Part shown: in pieces, positions 1 to 34,108 of the stretch | Layout of the letters: each line of letters starts with the position of its first letter | How positions within the stretch are numbered: the stretch's first letter is position 1 | Virus record (IMG/VR): IMGVR_UViG_2718217716_000005 | Reading direction: 5' to 3' (one strand) | DNA from: a virus | Taxonomy: Duplodnaviria; Heunggongvirae; Uroviricota; Caudoviricetes | Length of the DNA: 37,433 nt | The notes under the pieces: generated by a model | Database searches by the model: none | The model's input: only the letters and a program-made list of their open reading frames with translations | Told to the model about the DNA's origin: nothing | Made by a program: the position numbers and the translations under genes

Positions 1-738
1 TCATTCACTCTCTTTCAAACCAGTTTTAACTGTTTGTGGTTTTGGGTAAGGCTGGACTTTGAATAGCTTTGTGTTAAGGCGTTTTCTGGCTCTCTTGTCC
101 AGAAACCGGATGTAACGAAACTGACGGAATTTATGAACACTGGCTCTGTCGATATTAGCCCGCAGATGTTCACCTCTCTGTCCGCCTCGTTTAATGGCAT
201 TCCTGCAAATCTCGTGATACCACTCGCCATCAAGTTCATAGAATGTTGTTTCATGGCTGCCTACATAATCAAAATTGCTTGCCTGGTACACGACACCAAG
301 ACAGCCACAACGCTCATCTGCAAACGACTGAACCCACTGTACCTGCGGATAAAGCTGTCTGATTAGTTTGAGTGCGTAACTGATGGCCCTTGATTCGGAG
401 TTTCTCGGCATACAGTCATGCAGCCATAACCGGTTAAGCTCCATATATTCGCGGTTCTGCGTGCCCGTTACGACGCGTGCACCACTGTTTGGATTAAGGG
501 CATAGCCCCATTGCATTACGCCAACCAGCTCCCGTTCTGAAAATATACCCAGATGCAGGTAGGAATTATTTACGAAACGGTGGCTGTAATGTTTATTGAC
601 GATGACCAGTCTGGCCAGCCAGCAACTTATTGTCTCAACCCGTAATTCACGGGAACCATAACCGACGATATTGTCGTTATAGTGAATAAGTTCAGGCGTG
701 CTGATGATACGGGATGTGACTTGCTTTCTGTTCCCCAC
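1..738 (-). CDS. mom: Mom-like DNA modification protein; start uncertain (GTG at 736-738 proposed, preceded by AAGGAAA; the full ORF reaches 933)
   Basis: Last gene at the Mu right-end position, overlapping the 3' end of a Com-like zinc-finger ORF in another frame, as in Mu com-mom. Stop TGA at 1-3. No in-frame ATG near the com stop. Confidence 0.7.
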
Positions 739-892
739 GACAGGATTTCCTTGTGTATGTGGGGTGCTCTGTGGCGCTCTGAGATGTGATTTGATTGAGG
801 GTTTTACAGCGCGGACATTTGACTTCCAGATAACTGAAGCTGGCTCGTGCCAGTAGCTTGTTGCAATGTCGGCACCGTATGTTTCGATACAT
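692..892 (-). CDS. com: Com-like zinc-finger translational activator of mom
   Basis: Small ORF with CxxC...CxxC ([14 protein letters not shown]...KCPRCK), immediately upstream of and overlapping mom. Start taken at the internal Met at 890-892 rather than 937. Confidence 0.7.
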
Positions 893-1149
893 GGCCGCAT
901 AACCTCCTGCTTTGTTGTTGATATCTTTATCACTCAATCGATCGACAAAAACGATCGATTTGATTTATTTAATTGATACAACAAATAACACGAAATGTCA
1001 TTAGCGAAAATTTATGAGTTTGATCACTAATTTTAAAAGGTGCTGTAACGCATAAGTGCTGAATAATTGTACATTTGAATGCCGCAAAGCAAAAAAAATA
1101 AACTAATTGATAAAAATCAATCAGTTAACTGCAAGCGTAAGAGGCTGTT
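893..1149. promoter_or_regulatory. AT-rich divergent control region: candidate mom-operon promoter with three GATC sites and palindromes, plus promoter of the plus-strand gene at 1150
   Basis: GATC at 940-943, 953-956, 1022-1025. Inverted repeat atcgatcg / cgatcgat around 937-959. Possible -35 TTGAAT / -10 TAAACT for the plus strand. Confidence 0.45.
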
Positions 1150-1443
1150 ATGGACAATCATGTAACGACGAGAAATCGAAAAATGATTGAAAACGCGGAG
1201 ATCTATAATGATTATTTTTCCGATTATTCAGATGTCTGCAAATACAGTTCGAGTGCGGGAGAGTTCATATGCTTCAACTTTTTTATTAAATCTTATGTTT
1301 TTCCTCCACAGAAAGAAGATGGAGGTGTGCCACCTCCTGAAATCACTTTGCACCGTATAGCCTCCGTCTCAATGATGGAGCAACAGGCTAATGAGCTGTA
1401 TAGCATTCTGGGAATGATTCTACAAAAGCGTGAATCGGACTAA
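1150..1443 (+). CDS. Hypothetical protein (97 aa), low-GC, divergent from com-mom
   Basis: ATG at 1150 preceded by TAAGAGG at 5-nt spacing. Lower GC than the phage backbone. No recognisable motif. Confidence 0.45.
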   Translation: MDNHVTTRNRKMIENAEIYNDYFSDYSDVCKYSSSAGEFICFNFFIKSYVFPPQKEDGGVPPPEITLHRIASVSMMEQQANELYSILGMILQKRESD

Positions 1444-1578
1444 TGATACCGGTTCATTTGCCTGCCAGGATGGGGAAGCAGGATAGACTGCTCCATAAAC
1501 AGCTATATTTCTGAATACGAAATACTATCCAGCTATTACATATGGCTGGATAGCGGCAAAGATGTTTTCATTAGTGTC

Positions 1579-1613
1579 AAACCGGCAGAGGACACCACCG
1601 GTTTGTATTTTTA
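1579..1613 (+). terminator. Stem-loop (aaaccgg ... ccggttt) followed by a T-run on the plus strand
   Basis: 7-bp stem at 1579-1585 / 1598-1604, then gtattttta. Lies downstream of the 1150-1443 gene and overlaps the stop of the minus-strand ORF 1611-1865. Confidence 0.4.
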
Positions 1614-1865
1614 CATCATGGTACTGTCAGCTCCGGGCTGAGCTGGTTCTGGTTGCTCTGGCTGCGCGTCGGTTTTCGGCTCATTATCAGCATCACTGGC
1701 CGCAGCAGCTGGTCCAATAAGTTTTGCCAGCACCTCGTCAACGTAAGTGTCGATTTGTGCCTCAAAATCTTTGCGGACCTGCGCTTTCAGCAACTTATTT
1801 ACTTCACCGGAATACAGTGCCTGTTTTACCAGGTCTTCAGTGACGGTGCCTTTAATTTCTGGCAT
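1611..1865 (-). CDS. Hypothetical acidic protein (84 aa)
   Basis: Strong ribosome-binding site AAGGAGG with 6-nt spacer before ATG at 1865. Helical N-terminus, acidic Pro/Glu/Gln-rich C-terminus. Confidence 0.55.
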   Translation of the reverse strand: MPEIKGTVTEDLVKQALYSGEVNKLLKAQVRKDFEAQIDTYVDEVLAKLIGPAAAASDADNEPKTDAQPEQPEPAQPGADSTMM

Positions 1866-1900
1866 GTATATCCTCCTTATGCGGGAATACAGCCCTGCAA

Positions 1901-2083
1901 TCAGGGCTGGGTCGGGCCTTTTGGGAGCGGAGCGGCCTGTGCTGTTTTACTGAGCTTTTCGGCTGCTGCGTCATCAATTTTGCGGCGAACATAATTTCTG
2001 ATGGCTTTATATCCACTGCTCACCAGATATAACGCACATACCGCCGTGCAGAAATAAAGCAGCATCGTATGAACAAATGTCAT
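1901..2083 (-). CDS. Hypothetical small membrane protein (60 aa, one predicted transmembrane helix)
   Basis: AAGGTAAGG-type ribosome-binding site. Hydrophobic stretch MLLYFCTAVCALYLV followed by a basic region. Confidence 0.45.
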   Translation of the reverse strand: MTFVHTMLLYFCTAVCALYLVSSGYKAIRNYVRRKIDDAAAEKLSKTAQAAPLPKGPTQP

Positions 2084-2197
2084 ATAACCTTACCTTTGAT
2101 ATTGACTACAGAAACAGTTTTCAGCTAAAAAGTAACCGCGTACATAATGGCCTTCTTTTCAGAGGTTGTAGCTTTCCTTAATGGGTTTGGAATATCA

Positions 2198-2241
2198 CCC
2201 GCCAGTCAACAAATGGCTCTTTGACCGGCGGGATTTTTTTA
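2198..2241 (+). terminator. Stem-loop cccgccagtcaa ... ttgaccggcggg followed by T7 on the plus strand
   Basis: Seen directly. The T-run is on the plus side only, so it is an efficient terminator only for plus-strand (antisense) transcription; on the minus strand it is a stem-loop without a U-tract just 3' of the esterase gene. Confidence 0.45.
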
Positions 2242-2247
2242 TCCTGC

Positions 2248-4317
2248 TTACGCGTTATTCACTTCCACCACAATGCTGTCAATCAGCACCGGGTATGTTG
2301 CACCGTTAGTGATATCGGTCACGCGTAACTTGTCTGCCGTAAACGTGCCAACCGGAGACTGCGACAGCATGAATGGTGTCCCGTCCTTACCATCAATGAC
2401 CGGCGTCACCTCAATACTGTTGTTACCGGCAAAACGGAAGCCCAGCGTATGCCACTCATTATCAAATGCGCTGAATGCCCCCAGCTTCGTGTTCTGCGCC
2501 GTGTTTCCCTTGTGATACATCACGTTAAGGTCTGTGGCATCGCTCTGTACGTAGAACGACGCCAGCAGGTTATGACCGGCATTACCTTCCAGAGTAACCC
2601 CTTGTGGCAGGGCAGAAACCGGCCAGTACAGCGCCAGTGCGTACTGATTAGCCGTAAGCGCGCCATCGAGTTTAAAACGACAACTGACAAGACCACCTTT
2701 ACCCAGCAGGTCCGCACCATTACCGGCATCATGCTCAAGATACCAGGAGGATTTGCCTGTTTCCTTGGTCAGTTTCATGGCCTTACCACTACCAGCTCCG
2801 GCATCATCCACGATTTGAGCCTTACCGCCTCCGGCAGTCCAGCCCTGTGGTGCCAGCTGTCCTTCAGACTCTGATGCCCGGTAAGCAAACAGGGTGCTCA
2901 TCGTCGTGGTGTCAGCCGGTGGTGTGGACGGTGTATCCGGCGATGGTGTTGATGGCGTGTCAGGTGATGGTTTTTCATCCGGCTGTGTCACAACCGGTCC
3001 CTGCATCACTTCAGGTGTGCGTCCCGCATGGAGCAGAATGGCTGAGGCCAGACGGTCTGAAATAATGCCCCTGCGTGCCCATGAGCTGAAATGGCTGTCA
3101 CGCTGTGTCGAGACAAAACTGCCCTGGGTACGGGATGCCGCACCGTAATACCCGACAGTCACAATATCCGGGTCTTCCGCCTGAGCATTCGTTGGCGTGT
3201 TCTGTCCATTCTCATCCGTCAGGAAAGGTACAAAGAAAATATTCTGAGTTTCCTTGCCTTTGTAGCCACCGTATACCGCCTCATATTTATCGGTGCCAGC
3301 GTTTTTCCAGTAATACGTGGTATCACCACAAATCCACGGTACCGTGCCAGCATTTCCACTCACGCACTGCGCAGCAAGCGGAGACAGGTCAGTTCTGAAC
3401 TGCTGAACCATGGTCGTGAATAAACCATTATGCTGCTGACTTCCCGATGCAAGGTCTGCTTCTCCCTGCATCCAGACCACAGCCAGAAGTTTGTTTTTCG
3501 GGTTCTTCGCCAGCGCCGCTCTGGTACGGCTTACCAGGTCCTGATACAGAGGTTTACCGACTCCCCAGCGTGAAGAATCAGCGGAAGCACCGCTGGTCTC
3601 ACTGAATGAACCGTCCGCCCCGGTGGTAAATGCTGACCCACCACGGCAACAGGGCACCAGAAGAATCCCGGCATTCTGCGGGATATAAGGCAGCAGTTTT
3701 TTGGCAATATGCAGCCCCTGACCGACAGTCCCGTACTGGCCTTTTGCCAGATCAGCTTTCGGGTGGTTTATCCCGCTCATATCCTGCACATCATGCAGGC
3801 AGTGATCTGCCGGAATGATGTCGTTATATGTACACGACGTACCGTCGGGCGTGACCGTGCTGCGGCGTGCCAGTTGCTTAATCCGTGGGTCCGGGCGGTC
3901 AAATGAATCCGGTAACGGAAGCCCTTCACCATAGGCCATGCCATTTGATTGTCCCGCCAGTGGGATCACATAGTAATACTCCGGCTCTGTGGTACTGCCA
4001 TTCGTGCTGCCGGAAGGCCCGGCGTTATCCGGTGCATTCCAGTCGGAGGGCGTGAGTGTTCCGGCCACGTCAGCTGTAATCGGAATGATGCCGGTCACGC
4101 CTGAACTGGTGATTTCTGCACTGGGATTACCGGATACCGGCATTATCCATAATGGCTCTTTCGTGCTGAAGCGGATCACGCAGTCTGCGAAGGTGATCCC
4201 CCCTTTATTACCCGAAGGCCTGAAAGGACTTTCAATAAATGCCACCGTGCCACCGGCAACCTTGACTGAAAACTCTCCGGGCATGGCGGAGAGCATTTTC
4301 CACTGGGAGTCTGACAT
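2248..4317 (-). CDS. Multidomain protein: N-terminal region, SGNH/SASA-type O-acetylesterase-like domain, Pro/Thr linker, C-terminal lectin-like beta domain (689 aa)
   Basis: Motifs YVIPLAGQSNGMAYGEG (GQSN nucleophile motif), VVWMQGEAD, DSHF (Asp/His of triad); linker PSPDTPSTPSPDTPSTPP; C-terminal ~220 aa Gly/Asn/Thr-rich. Sits where Mu carries the G segment and gin. Confidence 0.7.
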   Translation of the reverse strand: MSDSQWKMLSAMPGEFSVKVAGGTVAFIESPFRPSGNKGGITFADCVIRFSTKEPLWIMPVSGNPSAEITSSGVTGIIPITADVAGTLTPSDWNAPDNAGPSGSTNGSTTEPEYYYVIPLAGQSNGMAYGEGLPLPDSFDRPDPRIKQLARRSTVTPDGTSCTYNDIIPADHCLHDVQDMSGINHPKADLAKGQYGTVGQGLHIAKKLLPYIPQNAGILLVPCCRGGSAFTTGADGSFSETSGASADSSRWGVGKPLYQDLVSRTRAALAKNPKNKLLAVVWMQGEADLASGSQQHNGLFTTMVQQFRTDLSPLAAQCVSGNAGTVPWICGDTTYYWKNAGTDKYEAVYGGYKGKETQNIFFVPFLTDENGQNTPTNAQAEDPDIVTVGYYGAASRTQGSFVSTQRDSHFSSWARRGIISDRLASAILLHAGRTPEVMQGPVVTQPDEKPSPDTPSTPSPDTPSTPPADTTTMSTLFAYRASESEGQLAPQGWTAGGGKAQIVDDAGAGSGKAMKLTKETGKSSWYLEHDAGNGADLLGKGGLVSCRFKLDGALTANQYALALYWPVSALPQGVTLEGNAGHNLLASFYVQSDATDLNVMYHKGNTAQNTKLGAFSAFDNEWHTLGFRFAGNNSIEVTPVIDGKDGTPFMLSQSPVGTFTADKLRVTDITNGATYPVLIDSIVVEVNNA

Positions 4318-4621
4318 CGTCTTTTCTGCCTGTTTCTGAATTAAACAGAGTCAGAATAACAACCGCTGATAAATATGTGTTTTGCGGAAATTCAAAAAAA
4401 GCGTCACAGTACTTTTCGTGACGGAGCCGGTGAGGCAGGAACATAACGACAAAGAATGGACAGGCCAATACGATAACCGCATATTACCGGCTTATAATTG
4501 ATTTAACGATTCATGACGCTGCGTTCAGCACCTGAAAATATGCGTTATTTCAGAAACCCCTTGCCTGTATATGGCAATAGTATTGTTCCTGTTTTTATCA
4601 TTGATTTACATGGTGATGTTT

Positions 4622-18822: not shown

Positions 18823-19946
18823 TATTGCATTTCCTCTTTCATTTTCAGGAACTCGGCTTCGGTTTTACCCAGCAGATGGGCGGCGGCGATATCTTCAGCC
18901 GACAGCACAGCGGTGGCGGTCTTTTTATCCGGCACGGTCACGGTGTCGGTCTGAAGAGTGGTCAGAGCCGCAACCGGCTGGCGGGCGTCAAGCTGTGCAG
19001 AAAGTGCCGCAACACCAATCTGTTGTCCGAGTCCTTCCATGTATCCGCGTTCGCTTTTGAAAATGCGTCCTTCGGACTCGGCCTTATCCAGCAACTGCTC
19101 CAGCGTGGTGCTGCCGTGTTGTGCCGACAACGCGACATATTCGGTACGCAGGGCGTTATACGTCTCAACGGGCACGTATTTCGTCAGATCAATAGTGCCG
19201 CCAGTTGGTGTGCCTTTTGCGGTTTCCAGCTCTGCCGACAGGCTGGCAACCTGTGTTTTCAGGGTGTCGTGCGCATCCGCACGGGTTTTGATCCCGGTAA
19301 GGGCAGACAGCGCCGCCGTGCCCAGTTCCGGCGTAAATTCGTCACCGTCAGCCACGGTCAGACCGAGCGCCGTCAGCAACTGGCGTAATTGCTCATTCAT
19401 GGAGGTGTCCTTTAAAGGAGGGTTTAAGGCGTTATAAAGGTCATCCGCCGACAGTGCGGCGACAGGATTCATGCCAGTCAGACCGGGGTCACCGGTAATA
19501 GCCAGCATCCGGAGCTCAACAGGTTCACCGGTGATTTCGTCATAACTAATCACCGGGGAAAACCAGGGAAATTCGTTATTGCGCAGGTGTTCAATGGCCG
19601 GAGGGTTCCAGTCCGGACGCACTTCAAAACCACGCTCTTCACTGAAACGGAAGTTCTCCGGCGAGGCCATGACAAAACCGGCAGCCGGTGCCGCATGCCC
19701 CTCAATCAGGGTCTGGTGGTTGTAGTCAATCTTCACCGGCTGATTGAGCGCCACAACCCGGGATACCATGCGCCCAACGGTCGCACGGTTAATCAGCCAG
19801 CCTTCAGCCGGTTTTTCCGGGCGACCGTCACGGGCCTTTACCCGACCGGCTGGCATGATCTGACACCAGTCACCGTCCCCGTCTGCGGACAGGCTGATGG
19901 CATTCAGAATGGCATAAGCAAGTTTGGGCGTGTTTTTCGTCTTCAT
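18822..19946 (-). CDS. Head maturation protease / scaffold (Mu I-like)
   Basis: 374-aa ORF; ATG overlaps the downstream capsid gene start. Confidence 0.75.
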   Translation of the reverse strand: MKTKNTPKLAYAILNAISLSADGDGDWCQIMPAGRVKARDGRPEKPAEGWLINRATVGRMVSRVVALNQPVKIDYNHQTLIEGHAAPAAGFVMASPENFRFSEERGFEVRPDWNPPAIEHLRNNEFPWFSPVISYDEITGEPVELRMLAITGDPGLTGMNPVAALSADDLYNALNPPLKDTSMNEQLRQLLTALGLTVADGDEFTPELGTAALSALTGIKTRADAHDTLKTQVASLSAELETAKGTPTGGTIDLTKYVPVETYNALRTEYVALSAQHGSTTLEQLLDKAESEGRIFKSERGYMEGLGQQIGVAALSAQLDARQPVAALTTLQTDTVTVPDKKTATAVLSAEDIAAAHLLGKTEAEFLKMKEEMQ

Positions 19947-20123
19947 TCCGGCAGCATAAGCCGGTGTTTTTCAGGGCAGGTTTTGCGGGACTTCAGAAAG
20001 TGCTGACAGGGGAAAAATGAGAAAGGCGCTTCACGCAGATTTTAAAGCCCGTTAAATACAGGTTAGAAAATCACGACACGCGCCTGAAGAGGGTAAGGTA
20101 ATGTATTTGTATACCTTAAACCA
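19947..20123. promoter_or_regulatory. G-I intergenic region: candidate late promoter and candidate central strong gyrase site
   Basis: 177-bp non-coding gap at the genome centre between G-like and I-like genes, where Mu has P_I and its strong gyrase site. Contains hairpins (ccggc-agcataa-gccgg + T5; taaggta...tacctta). No motif-level confirmation. Confidence 0.35.
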
Positions 20124-28110: not shown

Positions 28111-28148
28111 GTTACGCTGTCTCATGGTGTTCTCTGAGTCAGCGTAAC
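28111..28148. promoter_or_regulatory. Perfect 9-bp inverted repeat (gttacgctg ... cagcgtaac, 20-nt spacer) immediately upstream of the endolysin start codon
   Basis: Seen directly; the 3' arm ends 1 nt before the lys ATG on the minus strand. Confidence 0.5.
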
Positions 28149-28180
28149 CGTGGGAAAAAGTGGGCAGGATTTGCGGAATA

Positions 28181-28603
28181 TCAGAAAAGCCGGGGCTGCG
28201 TGCGTTCCTGATGCAGGCGGCGCTGGGTGCGGATAACGGAGTAAATCTGCGTCTCTGACATCTGGTAGTGGCGGCGCAGGGTTTCAATTTTTTCGCCCTG
28301 GCTCCAGCGGGAAAAAATTTCATTATTGCGCAGTTCGGTGAAAAGGGATTCACCGACCGGGAGATAATAACCACGCCCGCCCATGTACCCGGCCTGTGCG
28401 GCCGCAACTTTACGGGCAAGCATTCCCGCCTGAGCAGATTCAATCCCCTGACGGTGCAGTTCAGCACTGATCACATCAACCAGGTCCCGCAGCGTGCCGG
28501 GCCAGTTCTTTTTCAGCTCATCATCAGGAATGTCATCCAGACGGTCAATCAGCGCGTGCAGCTGTTCGCTGTCACCAAACATGCTCATCTGTGTTTCAGC
28601 CAT
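28181..28603 (-). CDS. Mor/C-family transcriptional activator (140 aa), the only member in the window
   Basis: Size and position directly upstream of lys. C-terminal helix-turn-helix-like IETLRRHYQMSETQIYSVIRTQRR, GGAGG ribosome-binding site. Confidence 0.7.
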   Translation of the reverse strand: MAETQMSMFGDSEQLHALIDRLDDIPDDELKKNWPGTLRDLVDVISAELHRQGIESAQAGMLARKVAAAQAGYMGGRGYYLPVGESLFTELRNNEIFSRWSQGEKIETLRRHYQMSETQIYSVIRTQRRLHQERTQPRLF

Positions 28604-28645
28604 ACCCGCCTCCGGTCATCATTACACAGGGCAAGTTTAAAATAA

Positions 28646-28669
28646 AAATCCCGCGCTGTGGCGGGATTT
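28646..28669. terminator. Hairpin aaatcccgc-gctgtg-gcgggattt (bidirectional terminator-like), left copy of a ~35-bp direct repeat
   Basis: 9-bp perfect stem flanked by A-run and T-run. Near-identical copy at 29291-29314. Confidence 0.6.
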
Positions 28670-28942
28670 AGGAATGTAACGAATAAACGAGCTTAACAAT
28701 ACCTGGACAAATATTGATCAGTTAATCGTGTAAGTGTATGATAAATATCATTTATTTATTCTTCTGAATATACCGATTGTTTTTTTACCACTGATGAGAT
28801 CATCACTGGTATATGCGAGCTGGTTGTCTTTAATTATCAAACATGCTTTGCCGTAAAAAAGCATGGAAAAAGACATAAAAACTAACGCTCTGAAGATAAC
28901 AAACCGTTCCTTTAACGTTTTTTTATACAGGACTATGTTCAT

Positions 28943-29284
28943 ATGACTTTTGGCCCCATCATTGAGTTTGAATCAGGCTATACCGATGACATGTACCAGT
29001 CCCTGCAGGATAATGGTATCAGATACACCCCTATTGCAGCTTTATCATACAATGTAACCGAAATGGTTGAGTTGCTCCATGCGGTTAACACGCCAGAAAC
29101 ATGGGCCGCTATTGTTCTCATCGTAAAAAAATGGATAAACCGACACAAGGATGCCAGTGTTGAATTAACCATGAATGAGAACGGGCAACTGACATCCGTA
29201 AAAATAAACGGCTACAACGTAAATGATCTGGATAAGCTTGGAGTACCCAGTTTGATTCGAGCTTCTTTTAAATCAGAGGAGTAA
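28943..29284 (+). CDS. Hypothetical protein (113 aa), opposite-strand low-GC insertion between GemA and the Mor/C activator
   Basis: ATG at 28943 after a very AT-rich 270-bp leader, followed immediately by a terminator hairpin. No recognisable motif. Confidence 0.6.
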   Translation: MTFGPIIEFESGYTDDMYQSLQDNGIRYTPIAALSYNVTEMVELLHAVNTPETWAAIVLIVKKWINRHKDASVELTMNENGQLTSVKINGYNVNDLDKLGVPSLIRASFKSEE

Positions 29285-29290
29285 AATAAG

Positions 29291-29314
29291 AAATCCCGCA
29301 CTGTGGCGGGATTT
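29291..29314. terminator. Hairpin aaatcccgc-actgtg-gcgggattt, right copy of the direct repeat
   Basis: Sits between the stop of the plus-strand gene (29284) and the stop of gemA (29318). Confidence 0.6.
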
Positions 29315-29317
29315 GGG

Positions 29318-29827
29318 TTAACAGGGGAATGATTTTTCATACAGCCTGCAAACGCGCTCATAACTCATCACTGCACGCTCCGACATATCCAGGGCTGCCA
29401 GCATTTTGCGGCGGTGCCAGCGTTTGAGACGCTCCAGCACATCAGAGGCCAGCTCGGGGTGTTGCTCCAGCCACTGCCAGTTAGCCACACCTTCGCCGCC
29501 GTTCTGCGCGGCCGTCTGCGATTTCACCCAGCGGTTAAGGGCCGTTTCCGCACCATCAGAAATAAAGCCCTGCCGGTGCATCACTTTCCAGATGGCGCGA
29601 ATTTTGGCGGTCACCGTACCCGGCTTTAAGGCCCGGTTAACCGGTTTCTGACGCACTTTAAAACCGCGTTTTTTGAAAACATCCAGTACGCGGGATAACT
29701 CATCCGGTGACATATCCCGGCAACTGGCTTTACCGGTGGCTGCCAGCAGTGCGGATGTATAGGTTTCATCATCCAGAGCAAGCTCGCGTTTTGCCACATG
29801 AATGGCAGATATCAGTTTTCCTCTCAT
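29318..29827 (-). CDS. gemA: GemA-like early regulatory protein
   Basis: 169-aa ORF with N-terminal pattern LISAIHVAKRELALDDETY...GKASCRDMSPDEL...FKKRGF typical of the Mu GemA family; last gene of the early block. Confidence 0.6.
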   Translation of the reverse strand: MRGKLISAIHVAKRELALDDETYTSALLAATGKASCRDMSPDELSRVLDVFKKRGFKVRQKPVNRALKPGTVTAKIRAIWKVMHRQGFISDGAETALNRWVKSQTAAQNGGEGVANWQWLEQHPELASDVLERLKRWHRRKMLAALDMSERAVMSYERVCRLYEKSFPC

Positions 29828-30135
29828 ACCGTATTTACCTTTTTACGGACATGGAAAGCCTTTTCTGGCTCATTCCACCGGATATGATGCGTTGGCGGAA
29901 TAATCATTATGTGCCAGCCATCTCTGGTTGTTATTCGACAGAAAAACTCACCGCTGTATAACACAATGGCCTGCTGAATAAGCGCATCCGCAGCCAGCTC
30001 AAGCAGATATCTTTTATCAAAAAGGCTGATAATTTTCCGGCATAACCACCGGGTGATAACAAATGCGCCGAAAAACGATGTGATATATAAACACCAGTAC
30101 AGCAGAGAAATATTGTCCGTTATTTGCTCATCCAT
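29824..30135 (-). CDS. Hypothetical early protein with N-terminal transmembrane segment (103 aa)
   Basis: ORF overlapping both neighbours; hydrophobic LLYWCLYITSFFGAFVI. Confidence 0.45.
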   Translation of the reverse strand: MDEQITDNISLLYWCLYITSFFGAFVITRWLCRKIISLFDKRYLLELAADALIQQAIVLYSGEFFCRITTRDGWHIMIIPPTHHIRWNEPEKAFHVRKKVNTV

Positions 30136-30460
30136 TGTGTATCTCCCGTAATTCCGGTAAAGCCGAAATATGGCACCAGTGCGTCACCTGTCCATCCTCA
30201 TCTTCAAGGCAGGCTCCGGTTTCTTCATCAACAAAAAAGCCTTCATACCCCATATGACCGATGCGCAGTTCCTGCCGGTGGTCATACTGAACAATCAGCA
30301 CAACAGCCTCCATATCAGGTGGGAAAGCATCATTCAGTGAATGCCAGGGATAACCTCGTAAATCCCCGAAATAAACACCGGTCAGCGTTCCGCCACAGAG
30401 CGGCATTCCGGCGGCACACACAAGAGGTTCATCTGATTCAACAAATAAGGTCGTTATCAT
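30128..30460 (-). CDS. Hypothetical early protein (110 aa)
   Basis: ORF with overlapping start and stop in the early operon. Confidence 0.45.
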   Translation of the reverse strand: MITTLFVESDEPLVCAAGMPLCGGTLTGVYFGDLRGYPWHSLNDAFPPDMEAVVLIVQYDHRQELRIGHMGYEGFFVDEETGACLEDEDGQVTHWCHISALPELREIHNG

Positions 30461-31008
30461 GGCGTTAACTCCTGTAATACAGCGTCCCCGGCAGTCCGAC
30501 GACGGTGATAAATAAAACTCACCGTGCCCTCGGATAATTCAAATTTCTCGCCTATTTCCCGGAAGGTAAGGCGTCGTGGCGACTCTGCATCCCGTAATTC
30601 ACGAATAAGACGAACATCATCGTCAGGTATACGGGTGAAGGGCAGCAATTCTCCGTATTTTTTCATGCTTATGCCCATATATCGCGCCCGATTATGAACA
30701 GAGTCCCGGTCTCGCCCCAGATATTCTCCTATTTGCTTACCGGTCATCGTTCTGGCATTTTTTCGGATAAATTTATCTTCATCAGGTTTAAATCTGGGAC
30801 GTTTGCATTTGAGCAACTGCGGGTAAATACCGCGTAATAAAATAATCCGGTTATATACTCCCCAGTAACTTCTTTTTACTCTGACAGCAATATCCTTAAC
30901 CGGGGTGGACGAATAAAGCGCAATCAGTAGCGCATCTTCTTCAGGTGTCCATGCGCGGACATGAGCGGGTGCCCGACCTTTTCGTCCCATGGGTTGTAAT
31001 ATCATCAT
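30457..31008 (-). CDS. Hypothetical DNA-binding early protein with several helix-turn-helix-like segments (183 aa)
   Basis: WTPEEDALLIALY (SANT/Myb-like), TGKQIGEYLGRDRDSVHNRARYMG, LTFREIGEKFELSEGTVSFIYHRRR. Confidence 0.5.
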   Translation of the reverse strand: MMILQPMGRKGRAPAHVRAWTPEEDALLIALYSSTPVKDIAVRVKRSYWGVYNRIILLRGIYPQLLKCKRPRFKPDEDKFIRKNARTMTGKQIGEYLGRDRDSVHNRARYMGISMKKYGELLPFTRIPDDDVRLIRELRDAESPRRLTFREIGEKFELSEGTVSFIYHRRRTAGDAVLQELTP

Positions 31009-31011
31009 GCA

Positions 31012-31527
31012 TCACCCCCTGACTCGCTTTTCAGCAGCATAAAACTCATCAGACAGTATTTCGGTCATTTTCCGTTTTGCGGAATCATCTTCGCACTGAA
31101 GGTAAATCACATCGTCAACGCAGAACCAGTTCACGGGGCCAAACAGTATTGCTGAGAAGTCAATGCCCAACCAGAACAACAGGGCATCGGTTCTGGCATA
31201 CGTGACGGGCGAATATTCACGCCACAGAATGTTCAGTTCATCAGAGGCAACACGCAGGGTTTTAGGTATACGTGATGTGCGCGGCGTGCAGCTCCAGCCA
31301 TTCGACGCAGTCGGTTTTCGCCATAAGTCGCGATGAAAAGGATATTTGTCATCCATAAAGCGCAGCCCCTTAAAACAAAATCCACTGATACCGGATACAA
31401 ATACCGGGCGGCACGCAACATTCAGCACGGCCTCAAGGCGTTTTGCCTCATCTTTTACCGTCTGGCAGTCCTGCTGGTATTTTTGCCACGCAGCCAGCGC
31501 GGAAGGGTTTGATGTTTTAAAGAACAT
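31012..31527 (-). CDS. Hypothetical early protein (171 aa)
   Basis: ORF in the early operon, tightly packed with neighbours. Confidence 0.45.
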   Translation of the reverse strand: MFFKTSNPSALAAWQKYQQDCQTVKDEAKRLEAVLNVACRPVFVSGISGFCFKGLRFMDDKYPFHRDLWRKPTASNGWSCTPRTSRIPKTLRVASDELNILWREYSPVTYARTDALLFWLGIDFSAILFGPVNWFCVDDVIYLQCEDDSAKRKMTEILSDEFYAAEKRVRG

Positions 31528-32060
31528 TACGCCACCTCCGCAGATATCCCGGCAGGTGCTGCCGTCCGGTCAACAATCAGGTAGCGCAGAACACGCGCGG
31601 TGATATTCCAGCCGCTTAAACCGCAGATGATGACACCAAGGCGTATGTCGATATACGCCATCACAAACTGGGGCACGCCTTCTTTCATGGCCTGCTCATC
31701 AACTTCAGCCACCACATAAACGGTTTCACAGGTCAGAACGCCCTGAGCAAATTCCCACGCCATCGACGGAATATCATGCCCCTCAATCCACGGCAGGGAT
31801 TTTCTGAAGCTGCACCACTGAACATCATCAGCCGCACATTCCTGGCTGCATTTGCGACGAACCGGCTGCACCGGGCGGGGACGCGGAATATCATAAAAAC
31901 CGTTACATTCCGTCAGCACGCCTGCATCAACCGCATCACGCAGAAAATAAACCATGGAGGATAGCGGCATATTCATTTTTTCTGCCAGAGAACGGCTGGT
32001 CAGACGGCCAGAAAAACGCAGCCAGTTTTTAACCCCTTCAAGCACTTTTGCATCAATCAT
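31527..32060 (-). CDS. Hypothetical early protein with N-terminal winged-helix-like segment (177 aa)
   Basis: ORF; N-terminal LTSRSLAEKMNMPLSSMVYFLRDAVDAGVL. Confidence 0.45.
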   Translation of the reverse strand: MIDAKVLEGVKNWLRFSGRLTSRSLAEKMNMPLSSMVYFLRDAVDAGVLTECNGFYDIPRPRPVQPVRRKCSQECAADDVQWCSFRKSLPWIEGHDIPSMAWEFAQGVLTCETVYVVAEVDEQAMKEGVPQFVMAYIDIRLGVIICGLSGWNITARVLRYLIVDRTAAPAGISAEVA

Positions 32061-32063
32061 GAA

Positions 32064-32606
32064 TTATTCCTCCGTAAGCGCCACATATTCAGAATGTTTA
32101 ATTTCCTGGCATTCTTCAGGAATACACCCGTTTATTTCCCTGCCATAAGCGCCTACTTTAAACACCACACACAGAGCATCACGGGAGAGCGACGGGGTCC
32201 ACCAGGAGTCCGTATTAAACATGGAGGGGATTCTCATTACCCCCAGCTTTTCACAGAGCCAGACAAGGAAATCAGGACGCTTCCTTAACTCGCGTTCAGC
32301 GGCTTCAATCATTGCGGCAATCGCCGGTCCTTCAGGGCATGACTCATCAGGTCTGGCTATAAAGCACTGTCCGCCACCGATAAAAGCCACATCATCGCGC
32401 TTACGCCAGCCCGCAGGTAGAGCACCAGAAAAATAAAACTCACTGATTACGTCCATGGCGAACGGCTTTAAGCGCAATCCGGCAGCGCCTGTATTTTTCA
32501 GTAACGCCCGAAGAATACTGTTGCGTAGCGGTAAAACAGTCTGTTGATATTTGGTGAAATATTTATTTGTCTGAGTTCTGTCTAATTTGAAATAAAAGTA
32601 TGTCAT
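32064..32606 (-). CDS. Hypothetical early protein (180 aa)
   Basis: ORF in the early operon. Confidence 0.45.
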   Translation of the reverse strand: MTYFYFKLDRTQTNKYFTKYQQTVLPLRNSILRALLKNTGAAGLRLKPFAMDVISEFYFSGALPAGWRKRDDVAFIGGGQCFIARPDESCPEGPAIAAMIEAAERELRKRPDFLVWLCEKLGVMRIPSMFNTDSWWTPSLSRDALCVVFKVGAYGREINGCIPEECQEIKHSEYVALTEE

Positions 32607-32703
32607 GTTTACGATTCCTTATTTTCAGCTTTCAGGCGCAGGCAGTCACCTGACGCGAGCGCCATAATTAAAACGATGTGATATTTAAAGATTTAATGCG
32701 GTG

Positions 32704-33234
32704 TTATTTATTCAGTCCGGCATCCTGTTCAAAAGGCTCGACTTCAAAATTTTCAGTACCTTTATTCACCTTAATACCGGCAATCCCTTTCACCGCATCC
32801 GGCTCTGCCAGGACAGCTTGCTTATTCACTTCCTCTTTCGTGCGGATGAATCGCTCAAGCCCCATACGGCGCAGCATTTCAATCACGCCTTCCACATCAC
32901 GGCTGACGCTGCATGATGGTTTTCCCAGCCGCCATGACACCGTTCCGGTGGTCAGATTGGCAGTTTTGGTTTCACCGCCGTTCGTCAGCTCATTGCGGTT
33001 GGTTTTACACCAGTCATGAATCCCCTTAAAAAGCACTTTGATTTCTTTTTTAAGGTTTTCAATCTGCGGCGTATAACGGGCGGTGATTTCTGCCACTTCG
33101 TCATTCATCGCCGTTTCCAGGCGCAGTGCCTCACGCTGCATATCCCCAAAGCGGCGGATATCGCGGCTGACCTCTTCACGGGTCTGCGGTGCCGCCTCGG
33201 CTGCGGCCTTTAATTTTGTAACGCGTTTTGCCAT
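32704..33234 (-). CDS. gam: Gam-like host-nuclease inhibitor (DNA-end binding)
   Basis: 176-aa protein with MAKRVTKLKAAAEAA... N-terminus and ...ELTNGGETKTANLTTGTVSWR...FIRTKEEVNKQAVL motifs characteristic of Mu Gam family. Confidence 0.7.
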   Translation of the reverse strand: MAKRVTKLKAAAEAAPQTREEVSRDIRRFGDMQREALRLETAMNDEVAEITARYTPQIENLKKEIKVLFKGIHDWCKTNRNELTNGGETKTANLTTGTVSWRLGKPSCSVSRDVEGVIEMLRRMGLERFIRTKEEVNKQAVLAEPDAVKGIAGIKVNKGTENFEVEPFEQDAGLNK

Positions 33235-33245
33235 TTTGTTTTTCC

Positions 33246-33617
33246 TTATTGCAGTGTGCCTGATGCTTTATGCACGCGGTGGCGTTTAATGATGGCATCC
33301 GCTCCAAAAGCCTGTGCAGATGCCTGAAATTCCGCTGAGAGAAACTGAATAATTGCAGGACTGTGATACTGGAGAATACTTGCATAAACGTCACAGAGTG
33401 ACGTCGGCCTGTTATCCGTATCACGTTCTGTTTTCACATCCACTCCAATCTTTTCATGCACTTCAACACAGTCATTGCCTGCCAACTTTTCGTCATGCGA
33501 AACATGATTAAATTCAAAAATAACGCGTACTTTGCTCATCCTGTTGTCCTCATTTCGTCTTAATAACTCATCCGGCGTCTGACCTGATGACAGAGCCGAA
33601 CCATGAAGTAACTTCAT
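33246..33617 (-). CDS. Hypothetical early protein (start at ATG overlapping the upstream stop)
   Basis: The ORF track extends to 33638; the Met at 33615-33617 gives an ATGA overlap with the upstream stop. Confidence 0.4.
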   Translation of the reverse strand: MKLLHGSALSSGQTPDELLRRNEDNRMSKVRVIFEFNHVSHDEKLAGNDCVEVHEKIGVDVKTERDTDNRPTSLCDVYASILQYHSPAIIQFLSAEFQASAQAFGADAIIKRHRVHKASGTLQ

Positions 33618-33880
33618 ACTTCCCAGTAGACCGTACATCCGCTTATGCGGGTGGCTTTTACACGGCGGCGCAGGCCATTGGTCTGAACAGTGATTTCAAT
33701 TTCACCGGTTCCCTTAACTTCGTTTACCGGCGGCGTGGTTTTCAGGGCATAACGTTGTGGGTAGCGTTTGCTGCGCTCCAGCACTGCACCGGCAAGTTCA
33801 GTCAGACGGCGTGCGCTGTTCAGGGAGTCGAATAAATTCATTTTGTTACCGCAGGATTGCATATTCATATAACACCTCAT
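33614..33880 (-). CDS. Hypothetical early protein (88 aa)
   Basis: ORF in the early operon. Confidence 0.4.
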   Translation of the reverse strand: MRCYMNMQSCGNKMNLFDSLNSARRLTELAGAVLERSKRYPQRYALKTTPPVNEVKGTGEIEITVQTNGLRRRVKATRISGCTVYWEV

Positions 33881-34108
33881 TTAGCTGACTTGTTTTGCAC
33901 CAACAGAACGGCATATTCCACTGTAAACCTCTGTCGCACCTTCGCGATCAAGTCCGGCAGATATCACCATTCGCGTGCGGTCATTAAATTCAAAAAGTAA
34001 ATCGCCACATTCTTTATTTTCGGCCAGTGAAATCACTTTCACGTTATCGAAATTAACCAGGTAAAAGCGTCCGTAGATATCAGGAATATTAAATGCAGCC
34101 ATAATCAC
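33881..34108 (-). CDS. Small early protein immediately after B (Mu kil position)
   Basis: 75-aa ORF whose ATG overlaps the B stop; size and position as Mu kil, no sequence-level confirmation. Confidence 0.4.
   Translation of the reverse strand: MIMAAFNIPDIYGRFYLVNFDNVKVISLAENKECGDLLFEFNDRTRMVISAGLDREGATEVYSGICRSVGAKQVS

Follow-up and report, generated by a model that had tools for sequence, protein, structure and literature searches.

A putative bipartite OxyR/Dam operator precedes the com-mom genes of a Mu-like Escherichia coli prophage

The viral record IMGVR_UViG_2718217716_000005, whose entire length of 37,433 nt is referred to here as the window, represents a Mu-like Escherichia coli prophage in reverse orientation and is 100% identical to strain M3. 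At one end it carries the overlapping genes com and mom, and positions 941–986 upstream of them probably constitute a bipartite OxyR operator of the type found at the mom promoter of Mu (Pmom), at agn43 and at gtr, lying immediately upstream of the com-mom promoter and probably overlapping it. Judged from sequence, com-mom control in this prophage is no novel type of element; it reproduces, in rearranged form, a circuit already known to govern a toxic DNA-modification gene. The toxicity is that of Mom, which turns adenine into a carbamoylmethyl derivative, and its multi-level gating has become textbook knowledge through Mu. The elements concerned are the following:

941–955, minus strand: promoter-proximal OxyR-type half-site ATCG-TTTTTGT-CGAT, its arms being two Dam sites (940–943 and 953–956) 13 bp apart; core of the repeat 936–960
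972–986, minus strand: distal OxyR-type half-site ATTTGTTGTATCAAT, without GATC, starting 31 bp upstream of the proximal one and matching ATAGnTnnnAnCTAT at 7/10 positions
903–908, minus strand: Shine-Dalgarno sequence AGGAGG of com, located 10 nt ahead of the start codon (ATG at 892) and unchanged in nearly all window-type variants
692–892, minus strand: com, encoding a 66-aa zinc-ribbon translational activator of mom (Pfam PF10122 Zn_ribbon_Com, 7.3e-13; PHROG 'translational regulator', 1.6e-13)
1–738, minus strand: mom, encoding the DNA adenine-modification enzyme (GTG start 738–736, stop 3–1; Pfam PF25680 Mom, 6.6e-78)

The proximal half-site likewise matches ATAGnTnnnAnCTAT at 7/10 positions, a score reached by 0.16% of the 15-mers of the window, and the operator ends 49 nt before the com ATG. 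All distinct com-upstream sequences from viral contigs and genomes, anchored on the GATC pair, amounted to 34 module variants, and 34/34 possess the distal dyad AT.G-N7-..AT at 31–32 bp, with the AT at half-site positions 14–15 never changing. Among window-type variants, the distal half-site is invariant except for a one-base register shift in locus L021. In an ungapped alignment, the window's proximal GATCs pair with Mu GATC2 and GATC3, sharing the same 13-bp spacing and the same ATCGATCG...GATCGATT context. In Mu, phage Chuche, L038 and L079, GATC1 lies in the 3' arm of the distal half-site, which accounts for the recurrent 18/13 spacing of three GATCs, whereas in the window lineage the Mu GATC1 position reads cAATTa and the Dam site is gone. 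The match to the OxyR consensus is not lowered by this sequence, CAAT and CGAT each agreeing with CTAT at 3/4 positions. The Dam/OxyR logic that a preliminary description of this DNA had suggested by analogy to Mu thus appears supported by homology and architecture (the Mu alignment and the form of the gtr half-sites A and C), and we infer that OxyR binds at 941–986 and is sensitive to methylation there.

A scan of the sequence found GATC at 940–943, 953–956 and 1022–1025, none in 1–939 and, after position 1200, the next one only at 3750. Counted from the com ATG, the two proximal sites begin 51 and 64 nt further upstream; both are embedded in the inverted repeat AATCGATCG (936–944)/CGATCGATT (952–960), which forms nine perfect pairs around a 7-nt spacer and spans 936–960 in total. 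The three sites and the repeat are therefore present as had been described, and the earlier remark that two GATCs lie within about 60 nt of com at a spacing unlike that of Mu holds as well, with a net shortening of 27 nt between operator and com. GATC is under-represented across the window (114 found versus 144 ± 10 expected), and three copies within the 257-nt intergenic region are, by our own estimate, a roughly 3% event, so that the counts alone are weak evidence. The inverted repeat, too, is partly automatic because CGATCG and ATCGAT are themselves palindromes. Nevertheless, the GATC pair is more than chance, as the exact arrangement GATCG-N7-CGATC occurs once in the window and is conserved, conservation being the main argument: the 25-nt repeat is altered in only 1/12 distinct window-type upstream variants (L020), outside both GATCs, and the 13-bp GATC spacing recurs in distantly related com cassettes. 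Elsewhere, GATC-free stretches extend over 29,229–33,945 (about 4.7 kb, early region), 1204–3749 (2.5 kb, across a tail-fibre-like gene) and 1–939 (all of mom and com).

The extent of the conserved unit can be deduced from E. coli records matching the com-upstream region. Only 18 of these 235 records match beyond window position 1001; the other 217 match 861–1001 at 90–95% identity and then diverge. The conserved unit hence comprises about 893–1001, including GATC 940 and 953 and excluding the third site:

1022–1025, no strand assigned: third GATC, outside the conserved control module, within a segment (1002–1149) common to only 18/235 matching E. coli records

At that position GATC is absent in relatives of the O157, M18 and Shiga toxin-producing E. 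coli types. The proposal that the whole GATC cluster forms a Mu-like Dam switch is accordingly supported for 940 and 953, which align with Mu GATC2 and GATC3, and not for 1022, which belongs to lineage-specific DNA. Across more than 200 genomes, O157 included, the two genes com and mom are preserved intact and with hardly any variation, and so are the Shine-Dalgarno sequence, the leader and the two half-sites.

By comparison with known systems, the element resembles established OxyR targets. Mu Pmom has homologous genes, the 13-bp GATC pair (proximal site ATCG-GTAATAC-AGAT) and a half-site 31 bp upstream, and it also shares a CCCAC...GTGGG start-codon stem and the Com-target hairpin. It differs in having three GATCs versus two, its cGATCg corresponding to the cAATTa of the window, and in its operator lying 27 nt further from com; the extra space in Mu holds a TTAT-N6-ATAA C site, a T6 spacer and the −10 hexamer TAAGAT, for which the window has no clear counterpart. 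The E. coli K-12 gene agn43 (flu), located on the prophage remnant CP4-44, is likewise similar in sequence, with the proximal site ATCG-TTTATAT-CGAT followed by CGATAAG, so that agn43 TATCGATCGTTTATATCGATCGATAAG and window AATCGATCGTTTTTGTCGATCGATTGAG are nearly identical including the flank, and with a distal half-site at 32 bp. In contrast to the window, agn43 has three GATCs (spacing 19 and 13), controls an autotransporter and lacks a translational layer of the Com type. The gene agn43 is known to be phase-variable; for the window such behavior is hypothetical. P22 gtr, taken from the P22 genome, likewise has GATCs paired at a distance of 13 bp in half-sites A (ATCG-GTAACAA-CGAT) and C (ATCG-CTTGTAT-CGAT), and the starts of its half-sites lie 32 bp from one another, versus 31 bp in the window. 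OxyR binds the gtr half-sites and Dam methylation abolishes this binding (Broadbent et al., 2010, PMC2909390). In contrast to the two half-sites seen in the window, gtr possesses three half-sites and four GATCs with alternative activating (AB) and repressing (BC) occupancy.

The module is not confined to mom. Other com-methyltransferase cassettes are known from FluMu, Pnm1 and B3 (PMC3299994), in which, as in the window, com overlaps the start of the DNA-modification gene, the downstream enzyme being an N6/N4 or C5 methyltransferase instead of Mom. The same GATC/OxyR-type module together with the start-codon stem precedes com ahead of an N6/N4 DNA methyltransferase in phage Chuche (L007, 1479–2421) and ahead of a C5 cytosine methyltransferase in L096 (8408–9614), both keeping a distance of 51–53 nt to com. 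As the module moves among phages with different regulators and occurs in the chromosomal agn43 as well, a host protein rather than a phage-specific factor is to be expected as its ligand, and in Mu the host protein at Pmom is OxyR (PMC2909390; PMC4461284). For a survey of hosts, one genome per species was scanned with the Mom profile; a com open reading frame (ORF) was not found in about half of the loci, including those of Yersinia and Serratia, and these were not scored. The remaining loci include:

13-bp GATC pair upstream of com present: Edwardsiella, Symbiopectobacterium, Pantoea, Apirhabdus and an Enterobacteriaceae genome
0–1 GATC upstream of com: Pseudomonas, Desulfovibrio, Endobugula and Parathalassolituus

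Among scorable cassettes, the GATC pair is thus restricted to enterobacterial hosts, and every Enterobacterales cassette with a com ORF carries it except that of Scandinavium (L215), where no pair was seen and where the com ORF call is unusually long (93 aa) and looks unreliable. The genera Pseudomonas, Desulfovibrio, Endobugula and Parathalassolituus are not expected to encode Dam, whereas the window, as an E. coli prophage, resides in a host possessing both Dam and OxyR. Of 80 loci examined from a scan of viral contigs for TCGATCG-N7-CGATCGA, only 14 belong to com or mom, and a few more lie in AT-rich intergenic DNA of other kinds; most of the 80 are chance matches inside G+C-rich coding DNA. 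One copy lies at L155 606–626 upstream of a family-25 lipopolysaccharide glycosyltransferase (ORF 753–1505), and the motif recurs in AT-rich intergenic context in L101, L102, L117, L130 and L139, in L114 and in L134, some with 18/13 GATC spacing. These elements may represent further OxyR/Dam switches on phage genes.

With regard to transcription of com-mom, the consensus promoter scan did not reveal a convincing sigma-70 site upstream of com, and the three candidates are weak. The last GATC is separated from the com ATG by 51 nt in the window versus 78 nt in Mu, and related cassettes fall into spacing classes of 51–54 nt (window type, Chuche, L033–35, Edwardsiella) and 71–93 nt (Mu, L037, L038, L213 and others). 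A CAA repeat in the com leader (ATCAACAACAAAG, 911–922) is longer by six bases in L027, extending the operator-to-com distance from 51 to 57 nt. The candidate promoters fall into two groups:

975–1003, minus strand: candidate promoter A, with −35 ATGACA (1003–998), 17-bp spacer and −10 TATCAA (980–975)
918–931, minus strand: candidate promoter B, with the weak −10-like hexamers GATAAA, AAAGAT and TATCAA just downstream of the operator

All window-type variants conserve candidate A, which sets in at the mosaic boundary near 1001; the consensus scan did not list it because the final T of the −10 is missing. Transcription from A would start near 968, so that the proximal half-site would span roughly +13 to +27; this is the arrangement of agn43, where the operator lies over and downstream of the start (deduced from the annotated IsrC start and our reading of the K-12 −10). 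With candidate B, the operator would cover the −35 region and spacer, giving the geometry of gtr, whose BC site overlaps the promoter with a start site 33 bp after GATC4 (PMC2909390). Relatives with the 51–54 nt geometry show good −10 hexamers 11–13 nt after the last GATC (Chuche TATCAT, L033/L034 TATACT, L035 TATAGT). Overlap of the operator with the core promoter, the arrangement of agn43 and gtr, is hence probable, and under either candidate OxyR at 941–986 would occlude RNA polymerase. An Rfam search gave no relevant match.

In Mu, mom is in addition a late gene activated by C, and activation by C had also been proposed for the window. A Mor/C homologue of 140 aa is encoded at 28,181–28,603 on the minus strand, being 39.7% identical to Mu C and matching the PHROG 'late transcriptional activator' (2.6e-44). 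It is the single gene of the Mor/C family detected in the window; between it and gemA, where Mu has mor and the middle operon, lies an AT-rich insert (28,604–29,317) with two small ORFs on opposite strands (28,748–28,942, minus; 28,943–29,284, plus). A late-promoter box was defined from this phage's three late promoters:

28,130–28,186, minus strand: late promoter with lysis genes downstream
19,945–19,998, minus strand: late promoter with head genes downstream
4340–4397, minus strand: late promoter with the DUF6645 tail-fibre-like gene downstream, pointing towards com-mom

The three share TTyTGAwnTyCCGCAAAwC followed about 19 nt later by the −10 element TTAynCTGAC. That this box is not the C site of Mu agrees with the identity of only 40% between the C homologue and Mu C. 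When scanning 893–1149 in com direction, neither this late box nor TTAT-N6-ATAA was found, so that activation of com-mom by C lacks sequence support and appears doubtful. From an ambiguous alignment of the operator-to-com interval with that of Mu, either the C site or the core promoter may be what is missing from the window. The sequence TTATGCGG beside the com ATG resembles a late −10 and was rejected as such, there being no box 30 nt upstream and the start falling inside com.

With regard to the translational layer, Mom is 79% identical to Mu Mom, its gene being annotated as a coding sequence by the Prokaryotic Genome Annotation Pipeline in the identical M3 record, and Com is 46.6% identical to Mu Com. 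The overlapping com and mom frames noted before were confirmed, the 3' end of com overlapping the start of mom by 47 nt in a different frame. Two RNA elements can be assigned to the region preceding and including the mom start:

764–777, minus strand: hairpin GCGC-CACAGA-GCAC, putative RNA target of Com, immediately preceding the inhibitory stem on its 5' side
733–764, minus strand: translation-inhibition stem-loop, CCCCAC (764–759) pairing with GTGGGG (738–733), with the mom GTG in the stem and the Shine-Dalgarno sequence AAGGAA (752–747) in the loop

Across 14 distinct homologues the hairpin shows compensatory changes at all four pairs (Mu AUGC/GCAU, L035 GCGU/ACGC, L038 GCAC/GUGC); its covariation score is matched by no shuffle, and slid registers fail. 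The stem-loop is part of the minimum-free-energy fold and its five core pairs are invariant in 14/14 distinct homologues. Together with the zinc-ribbon gene, the covarying hairpin and the invariant stem holding the mom GTG argue for the Com-dependent translation logic assumed previously, and we infer that Com acts on mom translation. An extended Mom ORF was also considered, the frame being open over 933–1, i.e., 195 nt upstream of the GTG, with an ATG (900) closely following the com Shine-Dalgarno sequence; it is put down to chance, in-frame stops being present in the O157-type copy, in Mu and in most other relatives.

Taken together, these features would be compatible with the following course of events. 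With the GATC pair unmethylated (or hemimethylated, as reported for Mu), an OxyR tetramer on both half-sites would block RNA polymerase, while full Dam methylation of the pair would prevent OxyR binding and allow transcription. From the resulting transcript Com would be made first, bind the hairpin at 777–764 and open the adjacent stem (764–759 with 738–733) that hides the mom GTG, and only then would Mom be produced. On the methylation state of GATC 940 and 953, nothing was found in the methylome papers searched.

Several observations weigh against this interpretation. The left arm of the distal half-site is weak (ATTT, not ATAG), and consensus scores of 6–7/10 are locally common in AT-rich DNA, the G+C content of 900–1300 being 28–36%. 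The operator holds only two GATCs versus three in Mu and agn43, although gtr half-sites work with two. Besides the weakness of the promoter candidates, it is in the segment immediately following the operator that close relatives differ most within the block, so that the promoter may be degenerate. At the RNA level, the window copy of the Com-target hairpin has a C.A mismatch at the second pair, as in Chuche and L033/L034, and the stem-loop fold is no more stable than shuffled sequence (z = −1.1); L012, a close relative, regains U-A at the second hairpin pair by a synonymous change, C to T at 776.

Alternative explanations have to be considered. Rather unlikely, in our judgement, is the full Mu logic, in which the com-mom promoter would be a late promoter requiring the C homologue and the OxyR/Dam operator would only modulate it from upstream. 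The presence of this homologue and the weakness of all candidate promoters, which resembles that of activator-dependent promoters, are in favor of it, as are the Mu-like ATAACC boxes kept by longer-spaced relatives (L037, L213, L079), and an activator site inside the operator is conceivable from CAATAACCA between the half-sites of L034. However, the late box is absent from 893–1149 in com direction, and the 51 nt of the window, compared with 78 in Mu, are too few to accommodate operator, activator site, core promoter and leader one after another. Less probable again is a vestigial control region with conserved operator and decayed core promoter, com-mom being either silent or read through from the late tail operon with its promoter near 4397–4340. 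The variability of the operator-to-leader segment, in which O157-type copies lose the candidate −10 hexamers (AAAGGC, CATCAA), and the upstream late promoter pointing towards com would agree with such decay. Against it speak the near-invariance of com, mom, Shine-Dalgarno sequence, leader and both half-sites in more than 200 genomes, and also a reverse-oriented cargo gene and a terminator-like hairpin (1337–1321, minus strand) that lie between the tail operon and com.

Finally, the palindrome might act otherwise, as a site for SeqA or a dimeric phage regulator or as an RNA or DNA hairpin, for example, a plus-strand terminator-like stem-loop at 936–960. SeqA prefers hemimethylated paired GATCs about one helical turn apart, which counts for the SeqA version, the repeat folds as a hairpin if transcribed, and a terminator scan reports a plus-strand site with a 9-bp stem followed by TGATTTATTT. 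Still, such a role is very improbable: there is no credible plus-strand gene upstream needing termination, and not the T-rich tail but the ATCG-N7-CGAT dyad and the second half-site are conserved in Mu, Chuche and agn43, while an element conserved in phages whose regulators differ, and in the chromosomal agn43 too, is unlikely to serve a phage-specific protein. The OxyR operator at 941–986 is accordingly preferred here.

The significance of the OxyR operator depends on the promoter it would control. Within a well-known regulatory design, the one interesting feature here is that the operator is probably sited on a promoter without a visible activator site. If com-mom works as in Mu, the finding is an ordinary one. 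If, in contrast, the operator overlaps an activator-independent promoter, behavior similar to agn43 and gtr and possibly epigenetic heterogeneity in lysogens would follow, which would be relevant to the evasion of restriction and to variable methylomes in pathogenic E. coli. At its most far-reaching, and only as a long shot, com-mom in this lineage of more than 200 E. coli genomes including O157 might have lost the link to the late activator and be governed only by the agn43-like OxyR/Dam switch, in which case some lysogens, as a heritable subpopulation, would produce Com and Mom, with hypermodification of adenines in both host and phage DNA. A prophage would then confer phase-variable DNA modification, which might affect restriction and phage defence. 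More generally, OxyR/Dam operator and Com translational lock seem to travel together as a portable cassette ahead of Mom or unrelated methyltransferases, with the promoter-activator part being exchangeable or missing.

Adjacent to the control region, a gene of the opposite orientation is predicted:

1150–1443, plus strand: divergent orphan ORF of 97 aa, with AAGAGG 5 nt before the ATG at 1150

The ORF has no Pfam, PHROG, PADLOC or NCBIfam match. The preliminary description had assumed that the AT-rich control region also drives this gene, for which no indication was obtained; the ORF lies in separate, variable cargo DNA. It is a neighbor of the circuit, located in lineage-specific DNA together with GATC 1022. 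Cargo in the slot that separates DUF826 from com is variable, relatives carrying other reverse-oriented, often frameshifted, hypothetical genes (L004 1038–1495, L005 1019–1481, L006 684–1211). Upstream of the orphan ORF, TTTGAATGCCGCAAAGC (1075–1104, plus strand) resembles the late-promoter box, one base short, and TTGAAT, 18 nt, TAAACT on the same strand might serve as a weak sigma-70 promoter. The window contains CCGCAAA more often than expected (21 copies versus 9.8).

Searches with Mu proteins (tblastn) gave a collinear map from mom (1–738, minus strand) to ner (start 37,433), with gin and the G segment absent from the window and the cargo gene upstream of com instead. The ends of the window coincide precisely with the stop codon of mom and the start codon of ner. 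In M3, the prophage is inserted in flgL of the lateral (Flag-2) flagellar cluster, and its end, about 118 bp past the mom stop codon, interrupts this gene (L001 5589–6000, M3 chromosome left of the window).

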